Below are positions 6,116 to 24,641 of a DNA stretch of 39,560 nucleotides, in pieces. Numbering within the stretch: position 1 is the stretch's first letter; each line of letters begins with the position of its first letter. Location of the stretch: positions 1 through 39,560 of the forward strand of contig CAZESD010000004.1 in assembly GCA_964514945.1 (NCBI GenBank), in the 5' to 3' direction. The notes beneath the pieces were generated by a model. It ran no database searches, was not told where the DNA came from, and saw nothing but the letters and a program-made list of their open reading frames with translations. Made by a program: the position numbers and the translations under genes. This DNA comes from Candidatus Hadarchaeota archaeon. GTDB lineage: Archaea; Hadarchaeota; Hadarchaeia; Hadarchaeales; Hadarchaeaceae.

Positions 6116-8140
6116 TTACTTCACCGCTCGTGTGACCATACCCTGCTTCGGCTCGTACAGGTGGCCCCTCATTTTCTCTTGCTCAATCAGCTCTTCCACA
6201 AATGACTGTTTGATCCCCTCAGACTCGGCGATGCGCTTTATTTCCTCGACCGGCGCCGCCCCGCCGTACTGGCCCTCAAGCTCCTTGATGATATCCAGCA
6301 CGCGGCGGATGTTATCTCGCTGGGATTTCGCCTTGCCTGTCATGAGCACGTCGATATCCAGCCTCCCCGTTTCGGTGTCGATCCCGGCCTCCTGAAGGGA
6401 GTGTTTGATGAGCTTAATTGCACAATTCGCATCCTCGAGTGTGACACGATCGCTTAACCTCATTCGGGCGTTCGCCTTCGCCAGCCGTACAATAGCCTCG
6501 AGCTGCCTCACCGTGATCGGGAGCGGTGCCTCCCCTCGCTCGGCTACTCTCCTCCAATCGACGAAAAAATCCTCGACCGTCTTCATGGCCTCCTTGTCAT
6601 CAAATTTTGGGTGGATGTTCTGACGCGCGTAGATGATAATTTTACGCAGGAACTCTAAGTCGATAGGCGGCTTGATCACTTTCTTGTGAGCGCTGTGTAG
6701 GTCTAAGATGTGGTGGGCTATGGTCCGATCTAGGTCGGCGCGCGGTTCATCGCGCATAATGAATACCAAGTCGAACCTAGAGAGAATCACGGGATCTAGG
6801 GGAACTTGCTGCGCGATAGTGAGATTTTTCTCAAACCTGCCTAGTTTTGGGTTGGCCGCTGCGAGCACAGCGGTGCGGGTGTTGAGAGTTGCGACGATTC
6901 CCGCCTTGGCTACACTAATCGTCTGCTGCTCAAGTGATTCTAGAATCGCGCTCGAGTCCTCTGACCTCATTTTCTCAAATTCATCGATGCTTGCTAAGCC
7001 ACCGTCCGCGATCACAAGTGCTCCTGCCTCGAGGGCCCAGCCGCCGCCTATCTCATCGCGGACCGCAGCCGCTGTAAGCCCGGCGCCCGTTGCTTTCATG
7101 CCAGAGGTATAGAGGCCGCGTGGGGCGACGTTCGCGGCCCACTTGAGTAGCTGGGACTTGGCCACGCCAGGATCTCCGGTCAAGAGAACGTGGGTATCGC
7201 CTCGAATTCTCGTTCCGTCTAGCAAATCTATTGCCTCGCAGCCGAATAGCTGTAGCGCGATCGCCTCCTTGATCGCGTCGTGCCCATAGATGCTCGGAGC
7301 AATTGACTGGATGATTTTGTTTCTGATCCAAGGGTCCTTCGCGAGCTCCTTAATTTTGACCTTGTCCTCCGGAGTCAGCTCAGCCTCTTCAACACCCTTC
7401 TGCAAGACCTCGATGTGGCTGACGAATAATATCTTCCGAAATGTCTTCTTTCGCTCATGGCGCCTGCCCTCCTGAAAGACGCGCAAAACGCCCGTAATCA
7501 CCAAATGGTTCCCCGGCACCGCCTTATCGACAAAATCGTCTCTGACTATGCCGTCCAACCTTCGAGGCATCCGCCCGCCGCGCAGCCTCTCGGGGGGCTC
7601 CTGCAAGCACAAGCTTTGCCAGTCGCGAAAAACTGTGCTTTCAATCACAAGGTCGAACGGGCCCTTCATACCGCAGTTCGGGTTCTCGCAAACGAGGGGC
7701 TCCCTGAAGAGTTCACCGACCTGAAGTATCCTGTTCTCCTCCCCGCAACGTCTGCATTTGAATACCGCCTCCGTCGCCTCCGGCTTTACCTCGCCTGCCC
7801 GTGTCAGGATTCCCTCAACCTGGATGAACTTGCCTACGTGCTCAGCGCGAATTTTGCGAATTTCTGTTGACTTATCGAGCCCCATCACGCGCAAGCGCAT
7901 TCCGGGAACCTTTGTTATACCCTCTAATGCAGCGGCAGCGGTATCAAAAAAATCAGATGGAGAATCTAGAAGGCTTTTAACTAGTTCCATGTCGAATTCT
8001 AGAAGCCGTTCGAAGGCGATCACGAGCGATTTTCGCCCGGCTGCCGCTATCCTGCGCAACTCCTTGAGGATCTCCCTGCGGTGCAGAAACTTCTCCAGCT
8101 TTTCCTTAACCTTCGGCTCCAATTTTTCCACCTCGAGCAA
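6116..8140 (-). CDS. mcm: MCM replicative helicase
   Basis: Zn finger CRRC..CENPNC, Walker A GDPGVAKS, Walker B IDEFEKM, arginine finger SRFD; no intein seen. Exact start (TTG vs a nearby GTG) is uncertain. Confidence 0.96.
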   Translation of the reverse strand: MLEVEKLEPKVKEKLEKFLHRREILKELRRIAAAGRKSLVIAFERLLEFDMELVKSLLDSPSDFFDTAAAALEGITKVPGMRLRVMGLDKSTEIRKIRAEHVGKFIQVEGILTRAGEVKPEATEAVFKCRRCGEENRILQVGELFREPLVCENPNCGMKGPFDLVIESTVFRDWQSLCLQEPPERLRGGRMPRRLDGIVRDDFVDKAVPGNHLVITGVLRVFQEGRRHERKKTFRKILFVSHIEVLQKGVEEAELTPEDKVKIKELAKDPWIRNKIIQSIAPSIYGHDAIKEAIALQLFGCEAIDLLDGTRIRGDTHVLLTGDPGVAKSQLLKWAANVAPRGLYTSGMKATGAGLTAAAVRDEIGGGWALEAGALVIADGGLASIDEFEKMRSEDSSAILESLEQQTISVAKAGIVATLNTRTAVLAAANPKLGRFEKNLTIAQQVPLDPVILSRFDLVFIMRDEPRADLDRTIAHHILDLHSAHKKVIKPPIDLEFLRKIIIYARQNIHPKFDDKEAMKTVEDFFVDWRRVAERGEAPLPITVRQLEAIVRLAKANARMRLSDRVTLEDANCAIKLIKHSLQEAGIDTETGRLDIDVLMTGKAKSQRDNIRRVLDIIKELEGQYGGAAPVEEIKRIAESEGIKQSFVEELIEQEKMRGHLYEPKQGMVTRAVK

Positions 8141-8590
8141 CAGCGGCAGATGGAAGAGGTAGTGAGGTGTATTTAGTAAATGTGGTGAAAATTTTGAACT
8201 TTAAGTTTAAAGTTTGAGAAACTTTTGTGCACATCCTAAAATCTTCTATGTCCCAATTTTTCATCCCCGACAAATTGAGCACTCCAACGCTAAACGGCTG
8301 GTTTGGCACTTTTATTTGAATATGCACCCTTGCTTCCCCCAATAAAACCTAAAAGAGATTTTTTGATGTCATTTTTGGGGAGAGGTCACCGAAAGTATTC
8401 CCAATCCTAAATTCCTGAATTTTCATAGTCTATTTTCAAAATGCCCTTAAAATAGCGGCTTTTCTACAACGCGTCTCTTTATTATCTGAGTTCGAGTGGA
8501 AACAGTCGAAAACAGGGGAAACGTAGGTCCTAAAGCTTTGAGTTCTGAGTTAAGCTTCAATTTTAAATTTTGGGAGTCGCCTTTTTACGA
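8141..8590. other. Probable replication origin (oriC) region: AT-rich, with ORB-like boxes
   Basis: 450-bp AT-rich gap upstream of the mcm-cdc6 cluster. ORB-like GTTCGAGTGGAAAC at 8490-8503 followed by GGGG at 8515-8518; weaker inverted box (minus strand GGGGGAAGCAAGGGT) at 8326-8340. Confidence 0.6.
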
Positions 8591-9889
8591 CTAACGTATT
8601 TTCACGTACTCGTATGCCTGCGTCGCGGACTCAAAACAATAGTGAACCTTTTGATAATCACGCCTGAACTCGGCCACATCGGCTGCAACACGCTTGGTTT
8701 CCTCCCCATCGACGATCACCCGCTTGATGAACTCCGCTATCTCCTCCATTTCGCTCTCTTTCATGCCGAGCCTCGTCACCTCAGAAGTCCCCAGCCTTAG
8801 GCCACCTGGATTCCTAAAGTGCCTTCCTTCTCTGGGATCCCAAGGTAAGAGCTCACGGTTGAGTATCACGTTGGCTTGCTCAAGTTTTCGCTCAAGCACC
8901 CCCCCATCTCCGTACTTGGTAACGTCTATGGCGAGGGTGTGCGAGGCCGTGAAGCCCTGATCTGGGCACAGAACTGCTAGTCCCCGGTCGTAGAGTGCCT
9001 TCCCGAGAGCCTTCGCGTTTTTCACTATTTGCGCCGTGTACTCCTTCCCGAACTCCAACATCTCCGCGAGAACCACCGCAAGACCCGCCACAGCGTGCAG
9101 GTGGTGGTTGCTCACCATACCTGGGAATACCCCTCGATTTATCGGGTCCGCCAGCTCCTTTTTGCACAAAATCATGCCGTGCTGGGGCCCTGGGAGGGTC
9201 TTGTGGGTGCTGCAGGTTATCACCTCGGCGCCCTCGCGCAGGGGATCCTGGAACTGGCCGCCTCCAATAAGACCGATGACGTGGGCGGCGTCGTACGCTA
9301 CGTGCGCGCCGTGCTCCTTGGCCACCTCGCTTAGCTCCTTAACTGGGTGTGGAAACAAAAATAAGCTCCCCCCGAATGTCACAAGCTTTGGCTTTAACTC
9401 CGCTATCTTCTTGACAGTCGCCTCTACGTCGATGTTCATGCGCTTCTCATCGAAGGGGAAATATTCGACCTCCAGACCGTGAACCGCCCCTGCCGCTCCT
9501 CCAAATTTCTTCTTCCCCATGGTGATGTGCCCCCCGGCGGCTATGGAAAGACACATCATGGTATCTCCGGGGTCTGTTAGCGCCGTGTACATGGCTAGAT
9601 TGGCGACGGCCCCCGAAACTGGCTGCACGTTCGCATGCTCCGCCTTGAAGAGCTCTCGGGCCAACTCCATGGCTAGCAGCTCGACTTGGTCGATATAGAT
9701 ACATCCAGCGTAGACCCGCTCTCCCGGCATTCCTTCAGCATAACGCCCACCGAAATCTGTGGTGAGCGCCTCCCGAACCGCCGGGGATTGCACGTTCTCG
9801 CTAGCTATCAGGGGCAAAACTGTCTTAAACCACTCATGGTGCTTTTGCAACAGCCCCAACGTCCGGTCGTATGCTTCTCTCGGTCGCAT
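8591..9889 (-). CDS. glyA: Serine hydroxymethyltransferase (archaeal type)
   Basis: LIASEN, RYAEG, YDAAH, and PLP lysine motif STHKTLPGPQHG. Confidence 0.96.
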   Translation of the reverse strand: MRPREAYDRTLGLLQKHHEWFKTVLPLIASENVQSPAVREALTTDFGGRYAEGMPGERVYAGCIYIDQVELLAMELARELFKAEHANVQPVSGAVANLAMYTALTDPGDTMMCLSIAAGGHITMGKKKFGGAAGAVHGLEVEYFPFDEKRMNIDVEATVKKIAELKPKLVTFGGSLFLFPHPVKELSEVAKEHGAHVAYDAAHVIGLIGGGQFQDPLREGAEVITCSTHKTLPGPQHGMILCKKELADPINRGVFPGMVSNHHLHAVAGLAVVLAEMLEFGKEYTAQIVKNAKALGKALYDRGLAVLCPDQGFTASHTLAIDVTKYGDGGVLERKLEQANVILNRELLPWDPREGRHFRNPGGLRLGTSEVTRLGMKESEMEEIAEFIKRVIVDGEETKRVAADVAEFRRDYQKVHYCFESATQAYEYVKIR

Positions 9890-14861: not shown

Positions 14862-15002
14862 TTACTCCTCTTCTAACTCCTCGTAAGGTTCCACTTCAGA
14901 ATAGATGCACTCGCCGTTCGAGTAGTAATCACACTCAGGGCAACACTCGTTCCGATTCTCACACTCATAGTACTGCCAACATTTAGGACAGCACTTCGGC
15001 AT
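14862..15002 (-). CDS. 46-aa Cys-rich acidic microprotein (not in ORF track)
   Basis: Hand translation MPKCCPKCWQYYECENRNECCPECDYYSNGECIYSEVEPYEELEEE*. SD-like GGGAGGGGAAGG immediately before the ATG; BRE/TATA-like CGAAAACCTTAAATAA on the minus strand at 15047-15062. Confidence 0.75.
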   Translation of the reverse strand: MPKCCPKCWQYYECENRNECCPECDYYSNGECIYSEVEPYEELEEE

Positions 15003-15046
15003 CCTTCCCCTCCCAAGAATTTCCATTTGATAGGAGCAAACATCGC

Positions 15047-15098
15047 TTATTTAAGGTTTTCGAACCCTTCCGCCGAGAAGTGAGAAAGTTATTTATGG
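15047..15098. promoter_or_regulatory. Back-to-back archaeal BRE/TATA promoters
   Basis: Minus: CGAAAAC-CTTAAATAA (15062-15047). Plus: GAGAAAG-TTATTTAT (15082-15096), about 25 nt before the RNA candidate at 15120. Confidence 0.6.
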
Positions 15099-15119
15099 AA
15101 GTTAAACTAATTTTTTCTC

Positions 15120-15401
15120 GCGCCGGGAGAGCAAACCGGAAGGGCCTCTAGAATCGGTCTTGGTGGATCCCACTGGTAGGGGCCTCAGAGAGCTAGGCCG
15201 GCTCAAAGGGGCCTTGAACAGCAGGCTGACAGGGTTGATTCAAAAGCGCTCGAAGGGTTGCGGCGTGGAGAACTCGTAAGGGTAATCCACACGGTCCGTG
15301 AAGGATTGGAGCGACGTGGTTCGGCGAGCTGCTCAAAAGGCGGTTCGGGTGGGCTATGTCGTCCGCAGTCATCGAGATGCCCGCGGCTCTTATCTCGGCG
15401 C
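15120..15401 (+). ncRNA. Candidate ~282-nt structured non-coding RNA, family unknown
   Basis: 5' and 3' ends pair (GCGCCGGGA-GAGC with GCTC-tta-TCTCGGCGC). Many internal stems with G-U pairs and a GNRA loop; GC-rich island between an AT-rich promoter and a T6 run (15404-15409). Confidence 0.75.
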
Positions 15402-15402
15402 A

Positions 15403-15410
15403 CTTTTTTG
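15403..15410 (+). terminator. Oligo-T terminator after the RNA candidate
   Basis: CTTTTTTG immediately 3' of the closing helix. Confidence 0.5.
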
Positions 15411-15470
15411 ATAAGATTTAGCTGGAGAAGAATTTTTCTGGAAGCCGACAAAAAACAACAAGGTGTCATT

Positions 15471-16346
15471 GTGGATGTCATTCGAGATTTTGACCCCTGG
15501 GATGACCCCCTCTGCACCTGCCCAAAAAAATATGGGTTCAACCCATATACTGGATGTTCTTATCGGTGCGTCTACTGTTACGTTACATCTTACGTGCCGA
15601 GAGCTTTCGAATGCAGAATAAAGAAAAATTTATTGAAGAGGGTTGAGCGTGATCTCAAGCGGGTCGACAAGTGCCGCGTTATCAGCATGTCAAACAGTTC
15701 TGATCCTTACCCGCCGATGGAATCAAAATTTAAGCTAACCCGCGGCTGCCTCGAACTCTTTCTGCGCGAGGGCTGCCAAGTGCAAGTGATAACGAAATCT
15801 GACCTCGTCACCCGTGACATCGATTTGCTCTCGAAGATGCTCTGCGTGGCCAGCTTTACTATAACCACCCTCAAAAGAAATTTGAGTCGGAAACTCGAAC
15901 CGCGAGCGCCACCACCCGAACGAAGGTTGGGGGCGATGAGGAAACTCTCGAGTAATGGTGTGCCCGTGAGCCTGCGCCTCGACCCAATCATCCCCGGCCT
16001 AAACGACGCCGAAATTGAACAAATCGTCAAAGCTGCCGCCACCACCGGCGCCAAACATGTAACCTCATCGACGTTTAAACCCCGCCCCGATAGCTGGCAT
16101 CGCGTTCGGCAGGTTTTTCCTGAAGCTACCGCCAAGCTCGCGCCGCTATACTTCGAACGCGGCGAACGGCGCCACAACAGCTGGTACTTGCCACGCGAAC
16201 TCAGGTTTGAACTCATGGGGCAGGTCAAGAAAGCGTGCGATGAAAATGGTCTGACCTTCGCCTCCTGCCGCGAAGGGCTGCGGGAGCTGACAACCGGTGC
16301 GAGCTGCGATGGGAGTCATTTGATTTCAAAAAAGAGTTCAAGTTAA
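15471..16346 (+). CDS. Radical SAM protein, spore photoproduct lyase-like (COG1533 type)
   Basis: FDPW..LCTCP.KY.FNPYTGCSYRCVYCY, SNSSDPYP, ITKS, LEPRAP, RLDPIIPG. True start is likely GTG 15471 after SD AGGTG; the track's extension from 15258 runs through the ncRNA. Confidence 0.88.
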   Translation: MDVIRDFDPWDDPLCTCPKKYGFNPYTGCSYRCVYCYVTSYVPRAFECRIKKNLLKRVERDLKRVDKCRVISMSNSSDPYPPMESKFKLTRGCLELFLREGCQVQVITKSDLVTRDIDLLSKMLCVASFTITTLKRNLSRKLEPRAPPPERRLGAMRKLSSNGVPVSLRLDPIIPGLNDAEIEQIVKAAATTGAKHVTSSTFKPRPDSWHRVRQVFPEATAKLAPLYFERGERRHNSWYLPRELRFELMGQVKKACDENGLTFASCREGLRELTTGASCDGSHLISKKSSS

Positions 16347-16347
16347 T

Positions 16348-16985
16348 TTATTTCAAGACTTCGCCCGTCTTCAAGTACCAAAGATAGAGATCCAGCTCAC
16401 CAAGCGTGAGCCCGAGCTTCTCCGCGAGCCCCACGAGCTTTTCCTCGATCCCCAGATATCGTCCACGTGTCAGCGAGTGGGGCACCTCATCTATTAATTC
16501 GTATTCGCACAGCACGCTGAGCACATGCCGGTCCAAAATTGCTACATCATCAAATCCCACGTTGCGCAGAAAATGACTCGCCTCTTTGTAGCCAATACCC
16601 TTTACGTTTTTCACTAGCCACTCGCGGGCCTGCTTCGCACCGCCTATTCTATTGATAATCTCTTTTATGTTTCGAAATTTTCTGTTATACACAATATACG
16701 TGGCCTTTTTTTATAGGGCCCTTTGTAACCCAATATTCTAATTTTCCTAGTTAGATTTTGTTGTGGTAGAAAAAGAAACCCGTTCTTTCCTATTTTTTCT
16801 TGGAGTCTCATTACATTTTTTGCAGAGGAACGTGCAGTTAAAACACAATAACATAATTCGGAAAACCACTCTTCGTTACCCTTATGAGCAATATCCTTGA
16901 ACTCTCGCATCCTCCGAGCTATGAGTTTGCCTACCTTGCCTCCCCTCAGCTCATTTACCCTGCCCACTAAATCCGCGCCCACCAA
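16348..16985 (-). pseudogene. ogg: 8-oxoguanine N-glycosylase/DNA lyase, split by a single frameshift
   Basis: N-half FSELCYCVLTA (16665-16985) and C-half REWLVKNVKGIGYKEASHFLRNVG..AILDRH..LDLYLWY (16348-16692). One extra A in the A7 run (T7 at 16706-16712) joins them as ..GPYKKKATYIVYNRK.. Confidence 0.8.
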
Positions 16986-17036: not shown

Positions 17037-17852
17037 CTAGGCGATCGCGAGCTTCGTTTGGACTTGAGCGAGCTGCCACGGGTGGGCATGCTTCACTAAC
17101 TCATGCACCACCCTTGAAGGCCGCTTCCAATCGAACGGCCGCGCATCAGCAGGGCTGGCATCAAGCACGGAAAACTCTGTCACCTCATCTGGAGCGATGG
17201 GAACCGAAACCAAGCCCGACTCCGGGTTGAGGCTCATAGGCGCCAGCAATAGACCTCGCCTCACCCGAAGCTCGGAGAGTAGGCAGGTATTCGTCCTTCG
17301 CTTTATCTCAAGGGAGGAAGAGACGCCATTGACGCGAATGCTCGAATGACGCTCGGTTAAATAGCTCGCGATAGAATTTGTTAGTCCTCTCTGTAGGTCT
17401 GCCAGTGCATAGCTATCCCCCGCCCAAGCTTCGTGAGGGATGGCCTCGAAAGGTATCAATAAATCAAACCCAAGTTGGCCGGAGTACTTGACCCACGGCT
17501 CAGAGATGCCATCCTCCGCCAGCGCTTCGATCACCCAAGCAGTTACCGTCTTGGCAAACTCTAACCCTCCTCGCCTCACCCGCACACTCCAGACCAAATC
17601 GTGGCCAATCGGGCGCGAGAAGTCTTGACCTAGATAACGCCAGTAGGAGCAATAGAATGCCGTCGCTCCTGAGGCCAAGGCTCGGTCAAAGGCCGCCGTC
17701 GAGTCCAAAACAATGGGGTGCTTGCTTAGGTGGCGCTGCATGCTCTTGACGTGGGCGTTGTAGAAAGTGCATTCCCGCTCGCCGCTGCCGTTGCTAGCAC
17801 GCGCGAAATCCATGATTGTTTGTCTTACATCCAGGCGTCTGTAATAATCCAT
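17037..17852 (-). CDS. Archaeo-eukaryotic primase (PriS-like) fold protein with degenerate catalytic motifs
   Basis: YYRR.DVRQ.I..FA, GATAFY.S, GHDLVWSVR (motif I position), VKYSGQLGFD (motif II position), APMSLNPESGLVSVPI (C-terminal AEP motif). Confidence 0.65.
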   Translation of the reverse strand: MDYYRRLDVRQTIMDFARASNGSGERECTFYNAHVKSMQRHLSKHPIVLDSTAAFDRALASGATAFYCSYWRYLGQDFSRPIGHDLVWSVRVRRGGLEFAKTVTAWVIEALAEDGISEPWVKYSGQLGFDLLIPFEAIPHEAWAGDSYALADLQRGLTNSIASYLTERHSSIRVNGVSSSLEIKRRTNTCLLSELRVRRGLLLAPMSLNPESGLVSVPIAPDEVTEFSVLDASPADARPFDWKRPSRVVHELVKHAHPWQLAQVQTKLAIA

Positions 17853-17946: not shown

Positions 17947-18510
17947 TTATATTATTTTTCTCAATTGGGCCAAGTAGGGCTCAAGCCTCCGCGAAAATTC
18001 CTGCCCATCGGTCCAGTCAAGGACAATAAACCCCTCAATCACGCGTAAGATGTGCCGCGCCTGTTCAGCAAACTCAGGAGTCAACTTCCTCTGTCTACCC
18101 GTGCTTAGAAGTTCATCCATTTCGGTGGTGATCTTCGCCCGTTCTCGCCCAAGCACGATATAACCAGCGAGCGCCTCCTCCATCGCGCGCGCTCTAAGCT
18201 CGGGAGGCAGGATAGCTTGGAAGCTGTGAAGTTCCATGGGCTGCCACTTGGGGTTCGAGAAAAAATCTTCCAAACGGGGGGCCGCCAGCTCTGGGACAGC
18301 AATGACACTCTTTCCAAGTTTTAAGTGGGGAATTGCTCCAAGCAGACCCCGCGCAATGTGGGTGTAAATTTTTGTGGTACCATCTTTTTTGTTTCGCTTC
18401 GTGGAGCTTGAGTACCCGAAAAGCTTGCGGTAAAAAAGCGTCTTGCGGGTGCCTGTAAATCCAATGTCAAAGCTGAATACCCTTGCAAGAGTTCTTTCTC
18501 GCCCTTCCAC
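17947..18510 (-). CDS. Hypothetical protein; N-terminal half resembles a Cas2/VapD-like ferredoxin fold
   Basis: 187-aa ORF with BRE/TATA upstream (minus GATAAAAATTTAAATA, 18556-18541). Pattern FSFDI..FYRKLFGY..GLL..LGKSVIAVP..LEDFF. Fold assignment is an impression. Confidence 0.55.
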   Translation of the reverse strand: MEGRERTLARVFSFDIGFTGTRKTLFYRKLFGYSSSTKRNKKDGTTKIYTHIARGLLGAIPHLKLGKSVIAVPELAAPRLEDFFSNPKWQPMELHSFQAILPPELRARAMEEALAGYIVLGRERAKITTEMDELLSTGRQRKLTPEFAEQARHILRVIEGFIVLDWTDGQEFSRRLEPYLAQLRKII

Positions 18511-21571: not shown

Positions 21572-22963
21572 CTAAGTTACGAGCTCCGCGAGCGTGTCAC
21601 GATTTATTGCCCTCTTTATCTCAAGCGCAATTCTGTCTCCCATGCTCATTCTTCTCTGATATTTCGCGTTCGCGTATTTTGAGCCGATTCCCAGATGAGT
21701 GTTAGTCCCTCCCCCATGTCTCAATGCAACATCTTGTGTTACCGGAGTGTGCATGAAGACCTCCGATCCCTCTGGAACATCATACAAACCTAAATTCACC
21801 CCGCTGATGACCCCCATTTTGGTCCACGTTATTAAAGTTTGCAAACACCACGCCCCGAGAATCCCGGGCGGTTCATGGACCTGGGTTGCCTTTAGGAAAG
21901 CGTTGGCAGTTTTGTGGACATCTTTCAATAAGGACTCTCTAATGGAAATATCCACGTGAAATGTAACCTCAAAACTAAGTGGATACGGTGTCTTACTCCA
22001 ATCCGCTTTTAATTGGACATCAGCTGGCAGCCTTATGACGCCGTCGTGGGTAGCCTCTCTCCTTTCATCAATTGATAGGAATTCATTAGCTAAGCACGAT
22101 CGAGCCTCTTCTATGGGCGCGTTATAGATTTCCGCATATGCTTTTTCGGCGTCCCCCCAACTTTCTTTTGCGTTCAGCGGAGAGAAGAAATAATTGAAAT
22201 TGGCATGGGGGCCAGGAACGTATTCTTCAATTCTTGCTATTTTCAAACCATCCTCATCTATATTTCCAGCTTCAACTTCTCTTTTGAGTTTTTCTTCTAG
22301 ATCCTCTGAATTGGCGGCAAAAATAAAAGATCTTTCGTATTGCCTGTGTTTTAATTCGGTTTTTAAAATCAGCGGCTGTTCAATTTTTTTCTTAAATTTT
22401 ATCTCGTCTTTTTTTATTTCAACTTCAAAAGATTTTGGGGTGGGGATTCCGGCCTGTTGGGCAAACCAATAGTAATCTTTTTCTATTTCCCCACGATTTT
22501 CTATTTTCAAAAGTTTTCTTGAGCCGACGATGGGGACTGCAAAATCGTTTTCGATCACGCTGCATTTTTCATCTCCTCCGACATAAACGCTGAAAGCCCT
22601 ATTGGGGACCTGAAGGCATTCTAAATCGATTAAATCATCGACAAACTTTACAATATCAGAATACTTGTCCAAGATAAGGATCGCTTGTTTAAATTTTTTC
22701 TTCTTAAGATCGGCTATATCTTTGACTACAACCATATCTCGTCTTACGACGGCCGGCAAATCGTCGACGACTTCTTTTGACTTCCCGACCATCGGGTTTT
22801 GAAGGTAAATTATGGCTCTTTGCGGCGTGGTGTAAATTAAATACGGCAAATCATAATTTCTCGCACCCGCCGCAGCATCTAGAGCGGAATGGGAGCCCAA
22901 AATTAGAACCTTGGGATCTTTAAATTTTTGTGCTGCCTTTTGCATCTCCTTTCTTTCAATCAT
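21572..22963 (-). CDS. purP: PurP-family ATP-grasp protein (formate-AICAR ligase-like)
   Basis: LGSHSALD, VPNRAF, RIEEYV.G..NFNYFFSP, LSIDERRE, IRESLL, MSMGDRIALEIK. Start likely ATG 22963 (SD GGAG). Confidence 0.8.
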   Translation of the reverse strand: MIERKEMQKAAQKFKDPKVLILGSHSALDAAAGARNYDLPYLIYTTPQRAIIYLQNPMVGKSKEVVDDLPAVVRRDMVVVKDIADLKKKKFKQAILILDKYSDIVKFVDDLIDLECLQVPNRAFSVYVGGDEKCSVIENDFAVPIVGSRKLLKIENRGEIEKDYYWFAQQAGIPTPKSFEVEIKKDEIKFKKKIEQPLILKTELKHRQYERSFIFAANSEDLEEKLKREVEAGNIDEDGLKIARIEEYVPGPHANFNYFFSPLNAKESWGDAEKAYAEIYNAPIEEARSCLANEFLSIDERREATHDGVIRLPADVQLKADWSKTPYPLSFEVTFHVDISIRESLLKDVHKTANAFLKATQVHEPPGILGAWCLQTLITWTKMGVISGVNLGLYDVPEGSEVFMHTPVTQDVALRHGGGTNTHLGIGSKYANAKYQRRMSMGDRIALEIKRAINRDTLAELVT

Positions 22964-23074
22964 TTTATTGACTCCTTTGCCGCAAATGCGGTCTTCAATC
23001 ATTTATACCTTTCTACTCCTGGTTCTGCGTTAATTTTGGGGTAAAGGACTTCTTGAACCTATCTTAAAAAGAAC

Positions 23075-23416
23075 CTAAAACAACGGTTTCTTTCGGATTA
23101 CCGAATAAGTAATATCAGCTAGTGCTGCGGCACCCGCCAGAAGTATAATTATGCCCCCAAGGGTTAACGAGAACACATAATATCCCAGAACCCCTACTGT
23201 AAAGAGACAGAATCTGTGGAGAATTCTCAGCTTTACATAAGGAGCAACGTGCAGGAGGGGGGTCAAAAAGGCTAGAAAAAAGAAGCCCCCTGTGACGACT
23301 GATTTAGAGTCGATTATGCTAATGCCATAAACCATCAGCACAAGCCCCATGACGCAAAAAATGAGGGGAAGAATCGGGTACCCTCTCCATGTCAGTATAT
23401 TTATCTTTGATGTCAT
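23075..23416 (-). CDS. Small multi-pass membrane protein, unknown function
   Basis: 113 aa, about four hydrophobic segments; SD GGAG and TATA-like TTATATA upstream. Confidence 0.6.
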   Translation of the reverse strand: MTSKINILTWRGYPILPLIFCVMGLVLMVYGISIIDSKSVVTGGFFFLAFLTPLLHVAPYVKLRILHRFCLFTVGVLGYYVFSLTLGGIIILLAGAAALADITYSVIRKKPLF

Positions 23417-23471
23417 TTGTCGACGTCTCCTGTCTTATCCTATTTGCAGGAAATATATAATTTTTTAGATG

Positions 23472-24527
23472 TCAAGATGTATTTTTCTCGCTCAAATACC
23501 TTCGATATTCTTTTACTGTATTGGCGAGGCTTGAAACATCAAATAAATTAAGCCCAGTGCATTCGTTTGTTGCTGCCATGTACATGTCGCATATTATCTT
23601 TTTCAAACCTAGATCTAATCTCGACGGTTGAGACCTGCACAAACTTTTCCAGTCCTTGATCCCTTTAACATCGGCTTCCCTTTTCGCTTCTTCTACGTCT
23701 TTGTACCACTTCGTCTTTCTGTAGTACTGCCTTGCAATTTCCTTGCTCACGTGTAAACCTTCGTAAGTAAACCTGCATTCGTCCAAGGTGCCGATGACAT
23801 CCACGACGATTAATTTTCTATTGCCATCGAATGCTAACTCGATTTTTCCATCATCATTTTGTAGGTTAGCCCTTGCAGCAATTTTTGAAATCAAATTGTT
23901 TGTGTGGGATAATTTATTTTTAATTTCTTCTACCTCTTCATCGGTTAGGCTGGCAATTCTTTGCGCTTCTGACCATGTGATGTATCGATCCCTTTCTTCT
24001 AATTTTGTGCTCACATCAAAGAAAGGCTTTTCAAGTTTTTTTCCTGGTTTGGGGTAGTGGTTCAATCCTAGGTCCTCATAACTGATTTGACCGTTCTTAA
24101 GCCTTCTGAAAATGCTTGAACCTTCAGGTAAGCTGTTTCTATACATGATCTCCATCGGTATCAAAAAATTTACCAAGTCATGTGTAAACACGCTATAATC
24201 GTAATTGATACCACTTCCTTTTTTCGGGCGAATTACCCGAACTAGATTTATCTCCATGATATTAGTCGGCTCATGCAGTTCGTCGATTCTGACAACCTTT
24301 CCATCTCGTTCTACTATGCCTTGATAATGGGTTTTTATTCCTTTTTCCTCCGCTTTTTCGAAACAGTAAGCACCCATTATACACAAAGCAGCTCCCTTGT
24401 TGAGGAGGTGATCTGGCATCTCTCCCCAGTCGAACACAGAGTAGCGGTCCGAAAAGTGAAACCTGCCGATTCCCATTTTATTGCCTTCTGGCTGGCTTAA
24501 AATTTCCAGATCTTTCACGCTTCCCGT
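23472..24527 (-). CDS. purC: SAICAR synthetase
   Basis: FSDRYSVFDWGEMPD, KG..LC, STKLE..DRY, DGKIE, DVIGTLDECRF, SKE. The family N-terminus (M)GSVKDL is encoded from ACG at 24527. Confidence 0.93.
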   Translation of the reverse strand, partial: TGSVKDLEILSQPEGNKMGIGRFHFSDRYSVFDWGEMPDHLLNKGAALCIMGAYCFEKAEEKGIKTHYQGIVERDGKVVRIDELHEPTNIMEINLVRVIRPKKGSGINYDYSVFTHDLVNFLIPMEIMYRNSLPEGSSIFRRLKNGQISYEDLGLNHYPKPGKKLEKPFFDVSTKLEERDRYITWSEAQRIASLTDEEVEEIKNKLSHTNNLISKIAARANLQNDDGKIELAFDGNRKLIVVDVIGTLDECRFTYEGLHVSKEIARQYYRKTKWYKDVEEAKREADVKGIKDWKSLCRSQPSRLDLGLKKIICDMYMAATNECTGLNLFDVSSLANTVKEYRRYLSEKNTS

Positions 24528-24641
24528 TTTTATTCCCCCATTATTTCTGGAGAATTACTGCATTTATATCTAAATTTAGGTGTGCAAAATTGAATAGGCG
24601 TCGGAAGCCTACTTAAGCAGCAGAAGGGAAAGGAATTTTAC

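Follow-up and report, generated by a model that had tools for sequence, protein, structure and literature searches.

The 39,560-nucleotide (nt) stretch of DNA considered here (the window; contig CAZESD010000004.1 of assembly GCA_964514945.1, Candidatus Hadarchaeota archaeon) carries at positions 15120–15401 of its forward (+) strand a stand-alone gene for a structured non-coding RNA (ncRNA), which lies between an open reading frame (ORF) for a Cys-rich protein and a gene for a radical-SAM protein. It is very likely that this is a dedicated gene of one Hadarchaeota family, here designated f1, and that it specifies a circular structured ncRNA of a new family that is excised at a motif of the bulge-helix-bulge (BHB) type. 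The closing helix of the RNA is a BHB, the joint seen in RNA contigs lies at its bulges, and the flanks are bare of such contigs; the RNA thus matures into a circle of 257 nt (15135–15391). The initial annotation, which was made from the letters of the sequence only, missed both the BHB nature of the closing helix and the circular product. The genome from which the window comes (G000; Hadarchaeota (Hadesarchaea)) amounts to approximately 1.07 Mb in 74 contigs and is 75% complete. All features of the RNA and its signals given below are on the + strand.

The evidence for the circle comes from contigs of four metatranscriptome runs (X15–X18), which were placed on positions 14900–15600 (701 nt). 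In all four runs the cover by RNA contigs is limited to 15135–15392, the flanks being bare. A joint from 15391 to 15135, at which the sequence goes back by 257 nt, is present in X15, X16 and X18, which come from three different studies; X17 contributed a single 216-nt contig that lies within the RNA and is without the joint. In X16, where the depth is 378–1622, two contigs that end at 15392 continue into CCGGAAGGG, which is the sequence of 15136–15144. One A fits both sides of the joint, and the reading 15392|15136 is equally symmetric. In both bulges the cut site follows the second nucleotide, the joint falls at the bulges, and the cut positions agree with the canonical geometry of tRNA introns at 37/38 as derived from the description of the BHB in the available part of PMC4090602. 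At least one environmental transcriptome contains the circle in abundance. When folded as a circle, the RNA has a minimum free energy (MFE) of −111.3 kcal/mol as compared to −92.7 ± 4.6 kcal/mol for 100 shuffled sequences (z = −4.0). The RNA contigs are confined to the RNA, but the mature product is a 257-nt circle rather than the discrete linear molecule of about 280 nt that the initial annotation had foreseen.

In the closing stem, read from the outside inwards, a bulge of 3 nt separates the 9-base-pair (bp) outer helix from a central helix of 4 bp, and a second bulge of 3 nt separates the latter from the inner helix. In the available part of PMC4090602 the hBHBh′ motif is defined as a 4-bp helix that is flanked by 3-nt bulges, one on each strand, the whole being set between helices. 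The 5′ strand of the outer helix (15120–15128) pairs with 15393–15401, which is in the 3′ “exon”; its nine pairs are 99.4% paired, and pair 9/274 has undergone a compensatory change from A-U to G-C in 4/32 sequences. The central helix is made up of GAGC (15129–15132) and GCUC (15386–15389) and shows compensatory changes at all four pairs in the same 32 sequences. The 5′ bulge is AAA (15133–15135), with the cut after 15134, and the 3′ bulge is UUA (15390–15392), with the cut after 15391; the 5′ “exon” (15120–15134) comprises 15 nt and the 3′ “exon” approximately 10–16 nt. The helix between 15120–15132 and 15386–15401 that had been proposed initially is indeed present and co-varies: among 20 sequences the 13 pairs of the outer and central helices are 99–100% paired and 4 are compensatory. 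When 50 distinct full-length sequences were examined by script, 45 had the BHB in its strict 3-4-3 geometry, and in these the central helix occurs in seven co-varying versions: GAGC/GCUC (23), GGGC/GCCC (9), GGGU/GCCC (5), GGGU/GCCU (3), GGGC/GCCU (2), GGUC/GGCC (2) and AGGU/ACCU (1). The remaining five sequences have an extra nucleotide facing a bulge, a 4-nt bulge or, in the case of L058, a central helix of two to three pairs.

The genome of the window encodes EndA (PF01974, 114.2 bits, in an ORF of 184 amino acids (aa); G000:C6:15570–15824) and RtcB (PF01139, 447 bits; G000:C65), and it is probably these two enzymes that make the circle. In the pathway we propose, the RNA gene's own promoter would drive transcription up to an oligo-T stop, and the ends of the resulting precursor of about 282 nt would pair into a canonical BHB. 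EndA would then cut both bulges and RtcB would ligate U15391 to A15135, the output being the 257-nt circle plus a small left-over composed of the two “exons”. The circle is predicted to be a three-way junction of a junction hairpin, arm A and arm B. The junction hairpin would probably form only after excision, when the 3′ strand of the BHB, freed by the removal of the 5′ strand of the central helix, can re-pair with a segment within the circle termed J1.

That the RNA is structured is evident already from the folding energy of the single sequence. The + strand has an MFE of −131.7 kcal/mol versus −109.4 ± 4.9 kcal/mol for shuffled sequences (z = −4.55; 0/200 as good), whereas the − strand is at z = −0.57 (59/200 shuffles as good), which bears out the plus-strand-specific structure that the initial annotation had read from the G-U pairs. 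When 20 homologues were aligned with MAFFT (mean column identity 82%), RNAalifold gave a consensus fold with 93 pairs. In these 20 sequences 97.0% of the cells are paired as compared to 94.2 ± 0.2% with shuffled partners (0/500 as high), and 32 of the 93 pairs are compensatory versus 12.9 ± 2.5 with shuffled partners (0/500). When the partners are slid by 1–3 columns, pairing drops to 32–47% with 7–16 compensatory pairs. With 32 distinct sequences the number of compensatory pairs is 57/93 as compared to 25.1 ± 2.8, from an alignment that was fitted to the model and therefore favours the fold. The covariation among homologues that had been named initially as a check thus exceeds all controls. 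Of the inner structure drawn then, the three hairpins GUGGA..UCCAC, CGGUCC-GUGAA-GGAUUG and CGUGGUUC..GGGCUAUG match helices 8–11 of the consensus. The four other helices (15142–50/15177–85, 15200–04/15209–13, 15214–18/15239–43 and 15247–51/15309–13) show no excess covariation, their pairing being 82.4% versus 82.1 ± 0.6% for shuffled columns (191/500 as high; 20 sequences). The pairs that do co-vary in this region are those of 15151–62 with 15230–41, which form one long arm, and of 15249–62 with 15371–76/15363–70.

Domain A (arm A; 15151–15241, helices 4–6) is a long irregular hairpin that extends from a base of 12 bp through an invariant core to an apical loop. Its lower stem shows compensatory changes in 11/12 base pairs (32 sequences); in the core, GUGGAUCCCACUG (15163–15175) faces CAGCAGGCUG (15219–15228), and in the apical loop GGCC is conserved. 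Domain B (arm B; 15246–15380, helices 7–11 with 20 sequences, 8–14 with 32 sequences) consists of a co-varying stem, a four-way junction at the end of it and the three hairpins that this junction carries. These are B1 (15265–15290), GUGGA..UCCAC with a GUAA loop; B2 (15292–15308), CGGUCC-GUGAA-GGAUUG with the loop GUGAA or GUGAU; and B3 (15313–15360), CGUGGUUC..GGGCUAUG with invariant G.U pairs. In the set of 32 sequences the G.U pairs at columns 218/258, 220/256, 228/246 and 230/244 are unchanging, such pairs being held by B3 and arm A. There are two 3x3 internal loops, GUA facing GAA in arm A (15176–15178/15216–15218) and GAA facing UAA in B1 (15270–15272/15283–15285), both about 70–90% conserved, which we take to resemble loop-E/sarcin-ricin modules. 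Modules of this kind often bind proteins. A K-turn in domain A (G47.A110/A48.G109 by a 3-nt bulge) was considered and rejected because position 110 is an A in just 18 of the 32 sequences. An all-against-all scan of columns for pseudoknots and long-range pairs gave mostly clade-level noise; the helix between J1 and the 3′ strand of the BHB alone survived a separate test.

J1 (AAGGGCC, 15140–15146), which is conserved and single-stranded in the precursor fold, is proposed to pair in the circle with 15385–15391. In the circular MFE structure the two segments form a 7-bp hairpin, the 5-nt loop of which, ACCGG (15135–15139), holds the ligation junction. This helix is 95.7% paired versus 92.4 ± 0.9% in shuffles (0/500 as high; the alignment being unfitted), and 3/7 of its pairs are compensatory as compared to 0.7 expected (5/500); slid controls give 37–74% pairing. 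In the G024-type genus J1 pairs with an inserted segment and not with the strand of the BHB, which suggests that the helix is real. There is thus modest support for the view that the 3′ strand of the BHB may switch partner to J1 after excision. The more far-reaching view, that we are dealing with a dedicated circular RNA whose fold is completed by circularisation, which serves as the core of a ribonucleoprotein (RNP) or as a ribozyme and which founds a new class of archaeal RNAs, is put forward tentatively, its chances being in our estimate a little short of even.

The RNA appears to belong to a family not yet described. As was supposed initially, it matches no recognised family: Rfam yields no match at the gathering score across the entire window, nor any at E ≤ 10 within 14950–15550. 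Searches of the literature on circular, BHB-bearing or structured ncRNAs of Hadarchaeota and other archaea brought up no description of the RNA, it being noted that similar RNAs of other archaea may be listed in the supplementary tables of circular RNA (circRNA) surveys. A guide RNA of the C/D box or H/ACA type was rejected, there being no Rfam match and complementarity to ribosomal RNA (rRNA) at the level of shuffles: the longest Watson-Crick run of the circle is 10 nt to 16S rRNA and 8 nt to 23S rRNA as compared to 8–11 and 8–13 nt for 20 shuffles, and the 10-nt run falls in a variable helix. With respect to an antisense function, the best match of the circle to its own genome (blastn-short) is 15 nt with E = 0.21, again in a variable helix. 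Also rejected was a mobile element such as a miniature inverted-repeat transposable element (MITE), the dispersed copies of which the initial annotation had named among the possible refutations. The RNA gene is present in one copy in each of the 32 genomes that have it (including that of the window), its site is syntenic, no flanking repeats were found around it, and a pattern scan of viral contigs gave no matches.

The signals around the gene are those of an independent transcription unit. A candidate archaeal promoter (15083–15096) is composed of a purine-rich GAAAG, similar to a B recognition element (BRE), and a TATA-like box, TTATTTAT (15089–15096), the centre of which is approximately 27 nt 5′ of G15120. 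This A/T-rich box, preceded by RAAAG, is aligned in 21/21 compared sequences; a transcription start site for the RNA gene is predicted on this basis. Downstream, a T6 run (15404–15409) is the likely archaeal terminator, and by eye a T-rich stretch is seen in the alignment 3′ of the end of the RNA in 21/21 sequences. The primary transcript would thus be a precursor of about 282 nt (15120–15401) plus a U-tail; its bounds are those of conservation, the conserved block extending from G15120 to C15401 in 21 sequences, and of the covariance model, which matches from 1 to 282 in 32 genomes. The TATA box and the T6 run of the initial annotation, and its view of the RNA as a unit of its own, are borne out by the conserved box, the T-run, the single copy and RNA contigs that cover the RNA only. 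A check for tRNAs found none in the RNA region.

RNA homologues were found by blastn in 21 of 41 relatives and by a covariance model in 32/65 genomes of the order and 32/66 of the phylum. A second model, to which the most distant members had been added, gave the same 32 genomes and none further in the order. All 32 belong to family f1, where the count is 31/45 when the genome of the window is excluded, and the RNA gene is retained across about ten genera of this family, a lineage of uncultured archaea from the subsurface; in 0/19–20 genomes of the other Hadarchaeota families was the RNA detected with the two successive models. A three-motif pattern hit 22 places in a collection of species genomes, in 18 of which blastn confirmed the RNA; of the corresponding records, 16 bear the label Hadesarchaea, Hadarchaeota, Hadarchaeales or Hadarchaeum, one is labelled Hodarchaeaceae and another Bathyarchaeota. 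The remaining four places are in bacteria, lack the RNA and are due to chance. The same type of scan hit 35 places in metagenomes; the RNA is present at 26 of them, all within the known diversity. It should be noted that the first-look filter scored just 28–29 candidates per genome, that exact patterns miss distant relatives, and that “not detected” does not mean “absent”, except at the site in genome G021 discussed below. The gene order is syntenic: hom-ACT-(Hsp20)-(Cys-rich ORF)-RNA-(radical SAM)-ogg-PrimPol-like.

Several points weigh against a dedicated gene for a circular RNA. With respect to the circle, the joint rests on assembled contigs (Logan) and not on raw reads, the bare parts of the 701-nt stretch are only a weak hint, and DNA may be present in RNA libraries. 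The joint could alternatively stem from a tandem duplication in some strains; such a duplication in the DNA is disfavoured because a single linear copy is seen in all 32 genomes and in the 26 metagenome contigs and because the joint matches the bulges to the nucleotide. The action of EndA and RtcB is deduced from the motif and from precedent. With respect to the dedicated gene, no homologue was detected in 14 of the 45 genomes of family f1. The near-complete genome G021 (genus g9) has the syntenic site without the RNA, the gap between the Cys-rich ORF and the radical-SAM gene being only about 90 nt. In genus g11, a search with filters off of the syntenic regions in genomes without the RNA revealed in G057 a decayed relic (L097:3775–3950, −; 7.4 bits) that is without arm A and the BHB stem, and in G023 no RNA in the syntenic spacer, which is unrelated or has decayed; the g11 sites keep a promoter-like box beside the relic or beside nothing. 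Besides L097, the sites underlying these observations are L095:3722–4087 and L096:709–799. The deletion in G021 and the decay in g11 mean that the gene was lost more than once, and the RNA is thus dispensable in some lineages. Finally, synteny indicates no protein partner, the Cys-rich ORF and the radical-SAM gene persisting in genomes without the RNA, and complementarity to potential targets in the own genome and in 16S and 23S rRNA is not above chance.

With no partner and no target complementarity, the function of the circle is a guess. Our best guess, which we hold with slightly less than even confidence, is that the circle resists exonucleases and serves as a scaffold to which one or more proteins bind via its invariant loops, or is a regulatory RNP. 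Selection has acted on approximately 90 base pairs, on invariant non-Watson-Crick blocks and on the processing motif. The same blocks could also be those of a ribozyme, which would act on RNA or on a small molecule and the active fold of which would be locked or stabilised by circularisation. This we consider unlikely, albeit the most serious of the alternatives. The RNA is large and multi-junctional with invariant blocks that are unpaired or irregularly paired, it reaches high depth in one metatranscriptome, and four or five of its G.U pairs never become G-C or A-U. Invariant G.U pairs are typical of metal or tertiary-contact sites. However, no Rfam ribozyme family is matched, no pseudoknot or long-range pair is prominent in the column scan, synteny and complementarity suggest no substrate, and the RNA is dispensable in several genera.

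Considerably less probable is that the RNA is an orphan BHB intron, in which case the ligated tiny exons (or nothing at all) would be what is selected and the circle would be a by-product or a selfish remnant. The exon product would be a hairpin of approximately 25–31 nt made from 15120–15134 plus 15392–15401 and tail. It is in line with this possibility that the outer helix, GCGCCGRGA/UCUCGGCGC, is near-invariant beyond the need of EndA, and that excised archaeal introns are known to circularise (available parts of PMC7714728 and PMC3326292). The ligated exons are too short for contigs built from 31-mers, and their absence from the contigs is therefore uninformative. However, structural selection on the would-be intron is strong, with 57/93 pairs compensatory and the long invariant loops remote from the splice sites; no host for it is found in the form of a tRNA, rRNA or ORF; and the RNA, which is under a promoter of its own, keeps a stable position in a syntenic site without repeats or extra copies.

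A cis-acting leader or riboswitch of the radical-SAM gene (15471–16346, +; PF04055) is largely refuted and accordingly given very little weight. This gene starts approximately 70 nt 3′ of the RNA on the same strand and follows it in 18/30 genome loci, as would be expected of a leader. However, the T6 run sits 3′ of the RNA, and the RNA contigs are circular and end at 15392. In 10/30 loci it is ogg or the PrimPol-like gene that comes directly after the RNA, and several RNA-positive genomes show elsewhere only a radical-SAM paralogue of about 40%. Conversely, a radical-SAM orthologue is found in 15/19 genomes of four families without the RNA, and the search with filters off gave no RNA upstream of it in 8/8 loci from other families.

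Least probable of all, and dismissed, is a diverged or circularly permuted housekeeping RNA, i.e., signal recognition particle (SRP) RNA, RNase P RNA or 5S rRNA, in spite of the permuted and circularised SRP RNA of Thermoproteus described in the available part of PMC4731332, since canonical copies are located elsewhere, Rfam gives no match even at E ≤ 10 and there is no sequence similarity (best blastn hit of the circle to the RNase P, SRP and 5S loci E = 2.1, outside the RNA genes). Archaeal SRP RNA (RF01857, 127–190 bits) is found at other loci in 35/41 relatives, among them 19/24 of the same family; for example, in G002 the SRP RNA is at C1:206413–206721 and the structured RNA at C1:794970–795278. 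RNase P RNA (RF00373, 189.3 bits) is elsewhere in the genome of the window (G000:C1:31232–31519), and 5S rRNA (RF00001, 86–105 bits) was detected in 5/5 genomes tested, including that of the window and one without the RNA. In the 75%-complete assembly SRP RNA and 23S rRNA were not detected, 16S rRNA, 5S rRNA and RNase P RNA were; since relatives have both, these two are most likely missing through assembly gaps. The earlier exclusion of RNase P and SRP RNA, based on their lacking signature motifs, is upheld by these loci.

The genes around the RNA deserve some remarks of their own. The Cys-rich ORF (14862–15026, −; 54 aa) diverges from the RNA promoter; it has about nine cysteines in a CCPKC...CCPEC pattern, an acidic tail and no Pfam match, and may encode a small zinc-ribbon protein. 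It is kept at the site in many genomes, including G021, G023 and G057, which are without the RNA. The gene for an Ogg-HhH 8-oxoguanine DNA glycosylase (16348–16985, −) is broken into two overlapping ORFs, of which 16348–16692 is the C-half and 16665–16985 the N-half. The ends of the halves are 293 nt apart, which is no multiple of 3 and thus means that this genome has either a frameshift or an error of assembly at this place; the halves apparently share one frame in relatives (e.g., L053). The next ORF (17037–17852, −; 271 aa) has a weak match to the LigD primase-polymerase (E = 0.0027, under the Pfam cut-off); this PrimPol-like ORF is two genes away from the RNA across the whole family and is adjoined by an ORF of 187 aa (17947–18510, −) without a Pfam match. 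Elsewhere in the window there are two islands of low GC content, 8100–8700 and 22200–24600 (0.36–0.42 as compared to approximately 0.50–0.58 around), which may be foreign or intergenic DNA.

How does the Hadarchaeota RNA compare with known circular RNAs of archaea? The closest analogue, as far as the available part of the paper goes, is the SRP RNA of Thermoproteus tenax, which is permuted and the ends of which, after cleavage by the tRNA-splicing endonuclease, are ligated into a stable and functional circle (Plagens et al., 2015, PMC4731332). In both cases a stand-alone gene gives rise to a structured ncRNA of about 250–300 nt, the ends of which become joined. However, in T. tenax circularisation repairs a permutation, whereas the Hadarchaeota RNA is no rearranged known RNA and co-exists in relatives with a canonical SRP RNA. 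Circles of pre-16S and pre-23S rRNA and circular or permuted 23S rRNAs arise at the BHB of processing stems, according to the available parts of PMC12918454 and bioRxiv 10.64898/2026.03.23.713588. These rRNAs share with the Hadarchaeota RNA a long terminal BHB stem, excision by EndA, presumed ligation by RtcB and flanks that are ligated as a by-product, but they are encoded in rRNA operons; the Hadarchaeota RNA has only 257 nt and its own promoter, and the genes for 16S, 23S and 5S rRNA are located elsewhere.

Genome-wide surveys of circRNAs were available in part. In Haloferax seven circRNAs that have a flanking BHB are given, including the intron in the 5′ untranslated region of HVO_1309, and none of those in the part of the source at hand is a stand-alone ncRNA (PMC7714728). 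In Sulfolobus the circles include C/D box RNAs, RNase P RNA, 7S RNA and, in addition, some RNAs without a known function; in the accessible parts of the tables they are small, 22–163 nt apart from rRNAs (PMC3326292). The introns of tRNAs are 11–129 nt long with medians of 12–25 nt, as stated in the available part of PMC4090602. The motif, the cut positions and the circle are the same as in the archaeal BHB introns covered there, such as those of tRNA-Trp with its C/D box small RNA, of rRNA and of HVO_1309 (PMC7714728, PMC4090602), and some archaeal BHB introns carry a functional RNA. Unlike these introns, the Hadarchaeota RNA is without a host gene and is 257 nt long with 80-odd conserved base pairs; C/D boxes are not recognised in it by Rfam (E ≤ 10). 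The biogenesis route, a circle made at a BHB, is therefore already known; the fold and the dedicated gene are new.

OLE, GOLLD, ROOL and HEARO are large ncRNAs of bacteria and phages that are linear as transcribed and the function of which cannot be read from the sequence. With these the Hadarchaeota RNA has in common a large co-varying fold, invariant loops and a narrow range; it differs from them in being archaeal, circular and without an Rfam match. The RNA would add a family to Rfam at a locus that is now annotated in Hadarchaeota as empty intergenic space, and if our reading is true, the archaeal tRNA-splicing machinery also manufactures purpose-built circular RNAs. It provides an entry point to the questions of what stand-alone archaeal circles do and whether circularisation acts as a folding switch, and the compact BHB cassette with its stable 257-nt circle may be of interest to those who use archaeal BHB motifs to build expression systems for circular RNAs. 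The archaeal BHB circles found to be known are rRNA intermediates, excised introns and an SRP RNA whose permutation is repaired; the Hadarchaeota RNA is large and intricately folded, belongs to no known family, has its own gene and appears to exist in order to become a circle.

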